NCBI RefSeq assembly: GCF_056712565.1
Contig: NZ_CM160072.1
Strand: one strand, 5' to 3'
Length of the DNA stretch: 64,000 nt
A program made the position numbers and the translations under genes. Positions 21,963 through 28,600 of the stretch are shown here, one piece after another. Within the stretch, counting starts at the first letter, position 1; each line of letters starts with the position of its first letter. The notes beneath the pieces were generated by a model. The model saw only the letters and a program-made list of their open reading frames with translations. It was not told the origin of the DNA and made no database searches.

Positions 21963-21996
21963 ATGCCGGATGCGGCGTTAACGCCTTATCCGGCCT
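21963..21996. repeat. REP-like palindromic element
   Basis: gccggatgcggcgttaacgccttatccggc motif typical of E. coli REP sequences. Confidence 0.55.
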
Positions 21997-24824: not shown

Positions 24825-26177
24825 TTATTGCCCCGCGACAGGTTTCAGCTCAATACGCTTGATATCGCCCACCAGCACCAGGTAGCTGAGTACCGCGATT
24901 AAGGCATGAACACCAACATAAATCAGCGCCCCATTAAAGGAGCCAGTCGTGCCAACGATATAACCAATTGCGATTGGCGTGACGATGCCAGAAATGTTAC
25001 CAAACATGTTAAACAGGCCACCGGAAAGACCGCTGATCTCTTTTGGCGCAGTATCAGCCATTACAGCCCAACCCAGCGCACCGATCCCCTTACCGAAGAA
25101 GGCCAGCGCCATAAAGCCGATGATCATCCACTCAACGTTGACGTAGTTGCAGAACACCATCACCATCGACAACAACATGCCCATCACGATCGGTGTTTTA
25201 CGCGCAATGTTCAGTGAACCCGTGCGACGCATCAGCCAGTCGGAAATAATCCCACCCAGCACACCGCCGATAAAACCGCAAACCGCCGGAACGGAAGCCA
25301 CAAAGCCCGCTTTCAGAATCGACATCCCGCGCGCCTGCACCAGATAAACCGGGAACCAGGTAATAAAAAAGTAAGTCAGGGCGTTGATACAGTACTGACC
25401 GATATAAACGCCGATCATCATCCGTGACCCGAGCAGCTGTTTGATCTGCCCCCACTTCACGCTAAACGGCACTTTAACTTTGGTGTTTTGCTGATCCATA
25501 TTGATCAGCGCGCCACCCGCGGCGATGTACTCCAGCTCTTTCTGATTTACGCCCGGATGTTGATTTGGCTCGTGGATGACTTTCAACCAGATAAAGCTGA
25601 TGACAATGCCCAGACCGCCCATAAAGAAAAAGACGTGTGACCAGCCCACTTCATGCGTCAGCCAGCCCATAATCGGCGCGAAGATAACCGTTGCGAAGTA
25701 TTGAGCGGAGTTAAAAATCGACACCGCCGTTCCCCTTTCCTGCGCCGGAAACCAGGCCGCAACAATGCGACTGTTGCCGGGGAAAGAGGGCGCTTCAGCA
25801 AGCCCGACCAGGAAGCGCAGCGTAAACAGGGCAACGATAATGCCGAATCCACTAAAGATATCGACGAAGCCTTGCAGCAAGGTAAACATCGACCAGATAA
25901 AGATCGACCAGAAGTAGACGCGTTTTGAACCAAAACGATCCAGCAACCAGCCACCAGGGATCTGCCCGATAACATACGCCCATGAGAAGGCAGAGAACAC
26001 ATAGCCCATTCCCACGGGATCAAGGCCGATATCTTTGGCCATTTCCGAACCGGCAATAGAAAGCGTAGCGCGGTCGCCGTAGTTGAAGGATGTGACGATA
26101 AACAACATCACCACTATCCAGTAACGAGCATTCGTGCGTTTTTCCACACTGCTCGCAGCCTGACTTAAAGAACTCAT
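24825..26177 (-). CDS. gudP: glucarate/galactarate MFS transporter
   Basis: 450 aa MFS; first gene of the gud operon. Confidence 0.9.
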
Positions 26178-26610
26178 TGTTGCACTCCTGAAAATTCGCG
26201 TTAGCCACGCTCACTCTGGACTGCGACATCGCCAGGAAATCAGAGGTGACGTAGGGTGTTTTTGCCGTTTTTATAGGTCGTTCACCGAATACGGCGCGTG
26301 TTTATATCTGGCAATAGCAGTATAAAAAGCGCGCCATAGCGGCTCACCGTGCAACAACACAACATTAATGCGTTCAATGAGGCCCGATTTTGGCATTAGC
26401 CCTGGACGGTGGAATCCACTTCACGGAAATGAAAACAAGAACAAGAAAGGAAGGGTTAAAACGAAGAAATAAAGAAGAGTATGAAATGGATCGCTTGACT
26501 CCAGGCAAACGCCAGTAAAAATCCGCGCTATGAAGCAGTTTTTACTGGCATTTGCCTGAAAAGATTCGATTCAGCACCGCTAAAACGGCATTTACCGCTC
26601 GCTGAACATA

Positions 26611-27060
26611 TCAGGACAACATCGTGCCCCAATGTTCAACCCACGGATTTGATTCCGTTTCCGGTTCCGGGTTCTCACTGGCGTCAATCAACAGCATTTC
26701 GCCAACCCGCTGAGCGCTCTGTTCCTGCAACAAGGCATCGAACTGTTTGCCGCCATTGCAGAAATTCACATAACTACTGTCGCCGAGCGCAATCACGCCA
26801 TAACGCAGATTCGGCTGGAAGCCCAGACTATCTTTGATTCCCTGAAAGAGTGGCACAATGCTATCAGGAAGGTCGCCCTGCCCGGTCGTGGACGTAACCA
26901 CCAGAACATACTTATCCTGATAGGGCAGCCAGTCGCTTAATTCAGGATCTTCAAATACCGTTGCTTTGTGGCCCTGCGCGGTCAGAATCGCTTCCGCTTC
27001 TTCGGCCACTAACAGTGAATTCCCGTACATGGTGCCGACAAAAATACCAATTTCCGCCAT
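26611..27060 (-). CDS. yqcA: flavodoxin-like protein
   Basis: 149 aa, [15 protein letters not shown]... Confidence 0.85.
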
Positions 27061-27077
27061 ACCGTTTTCTCCCTGGA

Positions 27078-27860
27078 TTAGGAACTTATCTCTCCATCCT
27101 GACCCGATGGCGCACTGAACTCAACCCTTTCATTTTCAGGAAGCAGACCCCGCCAGCCAAATTGTGATAACGCCTGCATCCAGGTGTCGTCCAGGCCCGC
27201 GTGAATAGTCAGCGGCTCGCCAGTAAAAGGATGCGTCAATGACAACTGACTAGCATGCAGCATTAACCGCTGAAGGCCAAAATGTTCAGCACCGCTGCGA
27301 TTCTGGCGTAAATCACCATGTTTGCTGTCGCCAATAATCGGGTGGCGCAAATGGGCAAGATGGCGACGGAGCTGGTGCTTACGTCCGGTTTTCGGCTCCA
27401 GTTCTACCAGGCCGTAGCGCGTGGTCGGGTAACGTCCGGTCGCTACCGGCATTTCTACGGTCGCCAGACCGCGATAATGCGTCACTGCTGGCTGCGGGCC
27501 TTTATCTTCGCGGGCAAATTTATCAGCGATTTTGTCCAGTTCTTCCACCAGTGGATAATCCAGCACCGCTTCTTCCATCAACCAGCCGCGCACAATCGCA
27601 TGGTAACGTTTCTGGATTTGGTGCTGTTCAAACTGTTGTGCCAGCAGCCGTCCGGCCTCGCTGGATAATCCCATCAACAACACACCAGAAGTGGGTCGGT
27701 CCAGACGATGAGCAGTAAACACATGCTGGCCTATCAGGTCACGCACGGTTTGCATGACCACTACTTTCTCGTCGCGATCCAGCCAGCTGCGGTGAACCAG
27801 CCAGCCGGAGGGTTTATTTACCGCAACCAGCCATTCATCCTGATAGAGTATTTCCAGCAT
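27078..27860 (-). CDS. truC: tRNA pseudouridine(65) synthase
   Basis: 260 aa, RluA-family motifs ([12 protein letters not shown]). Confidence 0.9.
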
Positions 27861-28189: not shown

Positions 28190-28232
28190 AAAGCAACCTC
28201 AATAAGAAAAACTGCCGCGAAGAATAGCAGGA

Positions 28233-28600
28233 ATAAAAAAAGGGAGCACTGTATTCACAGTGCTCCCGGTTCGTTTCGCAGCATTCCGGCTACTTTTGTT
28301 GCTCCCTGCTCATCCTTGACAACTTTTCCTCTGGCCTTGCGGCCAATCGTTCATCCTGAACTATTGCTTCCTGCTCACACCACCCCGATGTGATACTTCA
28401 TCCTGAAGTGTTCCTGGCCTTCCTGACCCACCGAATCATCCTGACCGGTTCTCATTCTCCATCCTGGAGGTGTCCTTTAACGCGTCCTGCGTCATCCTCT
28501 TCGCTTCATCCAGAAGCCTTTCCCTGAAACACCATCCTGGTGTGTCCTTCAGAAGTGTCATCATCCTGATGTTCACTTCGTTGTCTGACTCCCTGTCGAC
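28233..28600 (-). ncRNA. csrB: CsrB small RNA (CsrA-sequestering)
   Basis: More than a dozen catcct(g) motifs on the + strand (CAGGAUG/AGGA on the transcript). 5' end reads GUCGACAGGGAGUCAGACAACGAAGUGAACAUCAGGAUGA on the minus strand. Terminator hairpin gggagcactg...cagtgctccc plus U-run at 28233-28266. Confidence 0.9.

Follow-up and report, generated by a model that had tools for sequence, protein, structure and literature searches.

Rho-dependent transcripts have been shown to end precisely at stable stem-loops that carry no U-rich tail, with the rut site lying directly downstream of the stem-loop and the tail being trimmed by PNPase and RNase II (Dar and Sorek 2018, PMC6061677). The long hairpin described here, which lies between yqcA and gudP of E. 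coli, resembles these transcripts in that a stable stem-loop follows soon after the last gene, no U-rich tail is present, C exceeds G directly downstream and read-through is sensitive to bicyclomycin. It differs from them in its far longer stem (27 bp) and in internal A5 and U5 runs that betray a likely terminator ancestry, and for this locus both the steady-state 3′ end and the dependence on exonucleases are predicted features. Bidirectional intrinsic terminators, built from an A run, a GC hairpin and a U run, offer a second comparison, as our locus has an A5-hairpin-U5 core and its Citrobacter homologues score as terminators on both strands. Here, however, the GC hairpin has shrunk to 4 bp, pairing runs 15–18 bp past A5 and U5, the genes on either side are co-directional rather than convergent, and termination is Rho-dependent according to published data. 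REP and BIME elements are likewise intergenic 3′-UTR palindromes able to block exonucleases, whereas the hairpin studied here is single-copy, has an AT-rich middle and shows no match to the GC-rich REP sequence in the window (e.g. 21965-21994), the window being the whole 64,000-nt stretch of DNA that we analysed, numbered from its first letter. Finally, the lambda sib/tI retroregulation site, reportedly described by Guarneros et al. in 1982 and Schmeissner et al. in 1984, shares with our locus a terminator-like core inside a longer stem that needs read-through for its 3′ half to be transcribed, as well as a duplex of a size suited to RNase III. It differs in that RNase III cleavage at our locus is only putative and the inner terminator is very weak.

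The window is from E. coli, and the 501-base stretch 26150-26650 is 100% identical to strain ATCC 11775. The hairpin sits in the 433-bp spacer between yqcA and gudP, within the yqcA 3′ UTR, and is the first strong structure past the yqcC-truC-yqcA operon; in K-12 MG1655 the same hairpin occupies 2922426-2922482. Its coordinates bear out the placement given in the preliminary description, 3′ of yqcA and upstream of the gudP promoter, as it starts 52 nt past the yqcA stop codon, and the inferred gudP −10 and the gudP ATG follow 178 bp and 325 nt downstream of it, respectively. RefSeq annotates no feature at the hairpin, and a literature search found no paper that treats yqcA and gudP together and nothing relevant for yqcA alone. 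The features of the locus, in the direction of transcription, are as follows.

26611 to 27060, minus strand: yqcA (flavodoxin), with its stop codon at 26611-26613; the final gene of the yqcC-truC-yqcA unit.

26499 to 26561, minus strand: the full stem-loop as obtained by RNA folding, 27 bp (3 + 20 + 4) with one bulged A and an 8-nt loop.

26539 to 26558, minus strand: the 5′ arm, CAGGCAAAUGCCAGUAAAAA, which holds an A5 run (26539-26543) and the decamer GGCAAATGCC.

26522 to 26538, minus strand: the apical part, a 4-bp stem CUGC/GCGG (26535-26538 with 26523-26526), an 8-nt loop (26527-26534) and the bulged A (26522).

26502 to 26521, minus strand: the 3′ arm, UUUUUACUGGCGUUUGCCUG, with a U5 run (26517-26521) at its start and 15 nt of arm beyond the U run.

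26441 to 26490, minus strand: a pyrimidine-rich, G-poor tract (C 28%, G 4%, U 56%; 84% pyrimidine; C/G = 7), predicted to be unpaired; a candidate rut site.

26319 to 26324, minus strand: the inferred gudP −10, TATACT, which has TTGCAC-N24-TATACT and CGCGCT in common with the garP promoter region and a fixed spacing to the conserved blocks upstream.

About 26195, minus strand: the Rho termination coordinate (K-12 2922118), 18 nt upstream of the gudP ATG and about 300 nt past the hairpin (PMC7815308).

26177, minus strand: the ATG of gudP, which is co-directional with yqcA.

The arms of about 20 bp reported in the preliminary description were recovered exactly as written: CAGGCAAACGCCAGTAAAAA at 26502-26521 and TTTTTACTGGCATTTGCCTG at 26539-26558 are separated by a spacer of 17 nt and are complementary at 19 of 20 positions. 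At the one position that does not match, 26510/26550, the plus strand has C opposite A, and the minus strand, the sense strand of yqcA, has a G.U wobble. RNA folding of 101 nt gave −46.3 kcal/mol for the minus strand (z = −6.6) and −38.3 kcal/mol for the plus strand (z = −5.3), with 0 of 200 shuffles as stable in either case, and the plus-strand RNA forms a duplex of about 22 bp with a 1x1 mismatch. As minus-strand RNA the 57-nt hairpin alone folds at −36.8 kcal/mol, and the minus-strand stem persists when it is folded in a 216-nt context. A search of the window for the arm pattern with at most three mismatches returned two matches, which are the two arms themselves, against 0.02 expected from shuffles. 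Across the 64-kb window the hairpin is also the top-ranked local inverted repeat, the others being mostly REP elements or short stem-loops with arms of 16–22 nt. The hairpin is thus real, and chance is excluded as its source. A scan against Rfam 15 with E-values up to 10 found no family reaching its gathering score; what it returned were chance-level matches to eukaryotic miRNA and snoRNA models, at 13–26 bits against thresholds of 41–150.

Within the species the hairpin is nearly universal, being present in 5425 of 5426 complete E. coli genomes. Megablast places it once per genome, and the window likewise holds one locus; blastn returned two places per genome, most likely because the palindrome also aligns with its own opposite strand. 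Membership in a dispersed repeat or REP family was ruled out by this single copy number in E. coli. Among six sampled E. coli variants all SNPs fall in the loop (one at 26527) or in the flanks, and the arms are invariant. One rearrangement was seen nearby: in E. coli 2014C-4135 an inserted ISEc23 element (IS66 family; tnpA, tnpB, transposase) separates the hairpin from the gudP control region, its breakpoint being equivalent to window 26494/26495, a few bases from the stem base. In another genome, EC6563, the match begins only at about window 26454.

Beyond E. coli, we compared yqcA neighbourhoods from 80 other Enterobacteriaceae species. Stems of at least 20 pairs occur in only six Escherichia lineages (23–26 pairs) and two Citrobacter genomes (20–22 pairs), and other genera have shorter hairpins or unrelated structures at the same place. 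When 19 hairpin-carrying sequences were aligned, 75.7% of cells were standard pairs, compared with 29–49% when the partners were slid by 1–3 columns. One pair beyond the U run, at columns 25-57, covaries (AU in 7 sequences, CG in 5 and UA in 3), and the outermost five pairs are specific to Escherichia. RNAalifold applied to 21 module-bearing sequences (20 genomes plus the window) found no shared long hairpin; the long stem is specific to certain lineages. Fold energies in the six Escherichia lineages range from −25.7 to −40.3 kcal/mol. In all six the yqcA-sense fold is more stable than the antisense fold, by 3–11 kcal/mol, and the mismatches are mostly G.U on the sense strand, although the latter tendency amounts to about 4 versus 2 substitution events and is not significant. 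This strand asymmetry favours, but does not establish, the sense RNA as the form in use.

Position and ancestry agree with the proposal, made in the preliminary description, that the hairpin is probably a terminator or insulator separating the two transcription units. The E. coli version nevertheless fails the features of an intrinsic terminator, and it is not an efficient insulator by itself. A terminator-consensus scan of 26000-27200 on both strands called no terminator-like site. The stem ahead of the U5 run has 4 bp, a stability of −2.8 kcal/mol and a 1-nt spacer, whereas an intrinsic terminator calls for a GC-rich stem of about 5 bp or more that stops 0–2 nt ahead of its U run, and on the antisense strand the E. 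coli apical stem reaches −1.9 kcal/mol. In two other Escherichia lineages the apical stem has fallen to 0.0 kcal/mol while the long stem is intact. For comparison, the neighbouring csrB terminator, taken as a control, scores −19.5 kcal/mol. The U5 run is internal to the stem, and the RNA that follows the full stem, UCAAGCGA, has one U in 8; read as UCAAGCGAUCC, it is not U-rich either. We conclude that the E. coli hairpin is not a canonical intrinsic terminator. As regards the control, the K-12 annotation places csrB between yqcC and syd (window about 28230-28600, minus strand); the ATCC 11775 RefSeq record carries no csrB annotation.

Homologues in other genera look more like terminators. When the same scan is applied to the homologous hairpin of Citrobacter sp. 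MGH106, in which CCTTTC-ATTT-GAAAGG stands between an A run and a T run, it calls both strands terminator-like. The apical stem has −4.5 to −8.8 kcal/mol in the other genera tested, and several of them keep a T run after it: in Raoultella sp., Enterobacter sp. 10-1 and Salmonella the apical stem is followed by a T6 run, while in Phytobacter a T run is found on the antisense strand only. The simplest history suggested by these comparisons is that the ancestor was a bidirectional intrinsic terminator whose GC-rich top decayed in Escherichia while its lower stem was kept and lengthened. These homologues, together with the symmetry of the A5-hairpin-U5 core, would also fit the view that the E. coli element is still mainly an intrinsic terminator, possibly on both strands, with yqcA transcripts stopping at the U5 run on the minus strand and stray transcripts from the gudP control region stopping before they become antisense to yqcA on the plus strand. 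Against it stand the weakness of the 4-bp apical stem on either strand, its absence from two Escherichia lineages that have the long stem, the lack of any site called in E. coli, and the published transcription data considered next.

Adams et al. 2021 mapped Rho regions by DirectRNA-seq with and without bicyclomycin and calculated a Rho score over 800-nt windows (PMC7815308). An entry in their Supplementary file 2, "2922118, minus strand, orphan", has a Rho score of 3.98 and p = 9e-8 (PMC7815308). Upstream/downstream reads for this entry were 114/23 in untreated cells and 112/90 with bicyclomycin, so that the downstream/upstream ratio rose from 0.20 to 0.80. Because coverage running into gudP reaches 80% of the upstream level when Rho is inhibited, the hairpin is not an efficient Rho-independent stop. 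On these published data, most of the stopping that occurs before gudP is done by Rho and not by the hairpin; polymerase passes the hairpin, which alone is no efficient insulator. Since the score is taken over 800-nt windows and the counts are low, neither the termination point nor the source promoter of the reads can be told from them. Polymerases that read through probably cross the gudP promoter before Rho releases them. The Term-seq tables from the same study, which cover three growth conditions, list no 3′ end at the hairpin (29224xx), nor for yqcA, truC or gudP, while the end of the csrB control was found. No end is listed at the U run either. The missing end carries little weight, as the operon is weakly expressed. 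With the read-through seen under Rho inhibition set beside the poor apical stem, we regard it as rather improbable that the hairpin still acts mainly as an intrinsic terminator.

The locus fits the layout described by Dar and Sorek 2018 in having a stable stem-loop without a U-rich tail and a tract with more C than G next to it, and Rho-dependent read-through is published for it (PMC7815308). The pyrimidine-rich tract spans about 50 nt, from 26490 to 26441, directly 3′ of the stem. We give about even chances to the reading that the yqcC-truC-yqcA transcript, terminated by Rho further downstream, is protected at its 3′ end by the hairpin. RNA polymerase would read through the hairpin, in which a U5 run buried in the stem and an apical stem of only 4 bp allow at most weak intrinsic termination. 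Rho would then load on the unstructured, G-poor tract just past the stem and free the transcript within the next 300 nt or so, over the gudP promoter and leader. The 3′-to-5′ exonucleases PNPase and RNase II would trim the tail to the base of the 27-bp stem, and the trimmed stem would stabilise the end of the yqcA mRNA. Rho dependence in this intergenic region is taken from the published data and the composition of the tract is directly observed; that the tract is a rut site, that trimming halts at the stem and that the stem stabilises the yqcA mRNA are what we infer from them. A protective stem-loop at a Rho-dependent 3′ end is an ordinary arrangement that has already been described, and it is the most likely account of this locus. 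Besides the missing Term-seq end, the coarseness of the Rho score and the non-significant strand asymmetry, two features run against it. The stem is far longer than protection needs, and the hairpin module keeps its length within 1 bp across genera even though its centre cannot be aligned, which points to an additional constraint at the DNA level that protection does not explain.

Two further inverted repeats were seen on the minus strand downstream of the hairpin. Just 3′ of it, GAUCCAUUUCA forms a 10–11-nt inverted repeat with UGAAGUGGAUU, about 60 nt away (26409-26498); in the fold, their pairing closes the unpaired pyrimidine tract as a large loop, and the two halves overlap conserved blocks that contain TTTCAC and GTGAA. 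In the gudP leader (26200-26250), a conserved inverted repeat, CTCTGATT...CAGAG, lies just before the ribosome-binding site, and the Rho coordinate at about 26195 lies just after it.

The length of the stem invites comparison with lambda sib/tI. On this account the hairpin would be an RNase III site: a transcript stopping at the inner U run would carry only the short hairpin, whereas read-through would produce the 27-bp duplex, which would be cleaved, cutting the yqcA message from its tail and changing its stability. The near-perfect 27-bp duplex does exceed the minimum substrate of about 22 bp quoted by Gordon et al. 2017 (PMC5371410), and the 15 nt of 3′ arm beyond the U run, among which one pair covaries, form pairing that termination does not need. 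Among the putative RNase III sites in Table S1 of Gordon et al. 2017 (PMC5371410) is K-12 2922422, labelled as gudP-yqcA intergenic, for which the rnc mutant gave 48 reads and the wild type 0 and 1. It corresponds to window 26498, the nucleotide that directly follows the 27-bp stem on its 3′ side, 1 nt from the base and upstream of the inferred gudP promoter. The entry belongs, however, to the low-coverage tail of the table, where hundreds of silent genes show 0–2 wild-type reads against about 50–65 in the mutant, a pattern that resembles background or pervasive transcription. The reads carry no strand information, the site is putative, and gudP, garP and cdaR appear in the same list, so that the regulon may simply be more active in the rnc strain. 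In addition, stems of at least 20 bp are confined to Escherichia and two Citrobacter genomes. The 2922422 entry may mark RNase III dependence, or it may mark only the point where wild-type yqcA coverage reaches zero; in the latter case the fall to zero would agree with a transcript that ends at the base of the stem. Weighing these points, we consider a sib-like RNase III site unlikely; cleavage by RNase III and termination by Rho further on could in any case go together. Rules for RNase III substrates, in the form of base-pair preferences near the cleavage sites (proximal, middle and distal boxes), are given by Altuvia et al. 2018. With regard to Table S1 as a whole (PMC5371410), entries with fewer than about 100 reads are mostly silent genes with 0–2 wild-type reads and near-uniform rnc counts of 50–65, and an entry of such low rank needs independent support before it is read as a cleavage site.

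The protective reading, which we continue to prefer, leaves the fixed dimensions of the spacer to be considered at the level of DNA. The hairpin lies inside a scaffold (26319-26574, minus strand) that extends about 270 bp upstream of the gudP −10 and consists of conserved blocks with nearly invariant spacing, between which the sequence cannot be aligned across genera. From CTGAATCG to GTCAAGCGA the distance is 83–85 bp in 18 genomes and 75 bp in two Salmonella genomes; between the GTCAAGCGA block and TTTCCGTGA, 29 genomes have 61–62 bp and one Leclercia has 51 bp. All 36 of 36 genomes have 76 bp in the interval after TTTCCGTGA, and a final 29–30 bp lead to the TATACT −10. Length changes of about 10 bp suggest helically phased protein sites upstream of gudP. 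At the promoter itself, the gudP (26319-26366, minus strand) and garP regions both have TTGCAC-N24-TATACT with CGCGCT just before the −10, which is probably a common layout of CdaR-dependent promoters. A palindromic decamer, GGC-W4-GCC, recurs in the spacer as GGCAAACGCC, GGCATTTGCC, GGCATTAGCC and GGCATTTACC (26504-26513, 26547-26556, 26392-26401 and 26587-26596), and at the base of the sense 5′ arm it stays palindromic in the aligned genera (GGCAATTGCC, GGCATATGCC, GGCGTTTGCC); it may be a binding site.

These patterns allow the hairpin to be read as a feature of the DNA rather than of the RNA, either because it contains protein-binding palindromes (GGC-N4-GCC), or because it is spacer DNA in the phased gudP scaffold, or because its symmetry is kept by quasipalindrome correction through template switching in replication. 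What speaks for this is that GGCAWWTGCC at the sense 5′-arm base is palindromic in all aligned genera, including those that have no long hairpin, and that the blocks keep their spacing around unalignable sequence, with changes of about 10 bp as helical phasing would produce. The decamer is not clearly enriched, however: GGCRWWYRCC has 16 matches in the window against 6.9 ± 3.4 expected, and four of the 16 are the two arms counted on both strands, so that it was not convincing as an enriched binding motif. The garP-garD control region has no close match to the decamer, and the lean of the mismatches toward G.U on the sense strand also argues for RNA. We know of no regulator that binds the GGC-W4-GCC decamer, and a 17-nt spacer makes cruciform extrusion unlikely. 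A purely DNA-level feature thus seems a poor prospect to us, and a role of the DNA would not exclude one of the RNA. The elements can also be combined, with the hairpin as a chromosomal counterpart of lambda sib, in which a weak terminator lies in a longer stem, the RNase III site is made by read-through only, and the fate of the yqcA mRNA is set by an early stop versus a run on toward the Rho zone, and which at the same time serves as a fixed-length spacer in the helically phased gudP scaffold of about 270 bp. To our knowledge no antitermination system acts on the yqcC-truC-yqcA operon, and we hold this compound arrangement to be very improbable.

Several other features in and around the arms were considered. 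A sigma-54 promoter in the arms was rejected, as by eye the GG/GC spacing does not fit. Plus-strand small ORFs that end in the left arm (stop at 26516-26518), one of 42 aa from a TTG at 26390 and one of 29 aa from an ATG at 26432, as well as a 9-aa ORF that starts in the loop, were rejected as conserved genes, since sequences from different genera do not align upstream of the hairpin. The ORF at 26390-26518 encodes a highly basic product, has its TAA inside the left arm and, lying opposite the pyrimidine tract, is purine-rich; beyond Escherichia it is not conserved. A half-conserved CRP-like site occupies 26480-26496, reading AAGCGA-N6-TCATA on the minus strand, with TCACA in other genera. Abutting it on the plus strand are the promoter-like elements TTGACT (26495-26500) and, after 16 nt, AAAAAT (26517-26522). 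Speculatively, a transcript from these elements would start within the hairpin loop and enter yqcA in the antisense direction.

What the locus offers is of modest weight. It cautions that a long intergenic hairpin between co-directional genes is, on sequence alone, no basis for annotating a terminator or insulator. For gudP, the traffic of polymerases over its promoter could affect basal expression. Were the RNase III reading true, the hairpin would be a rare cellular example of sib-type retroregulation. The locus also provides a clear single-locus example in which an intrinsic terminator appears to have decayed in one lineage while its hairpin was kept and even lengthened. The hairpin would have been retained despite the decay because, with Rho taking over termination, the mRNA still depends on the structure for a defined and protected end.
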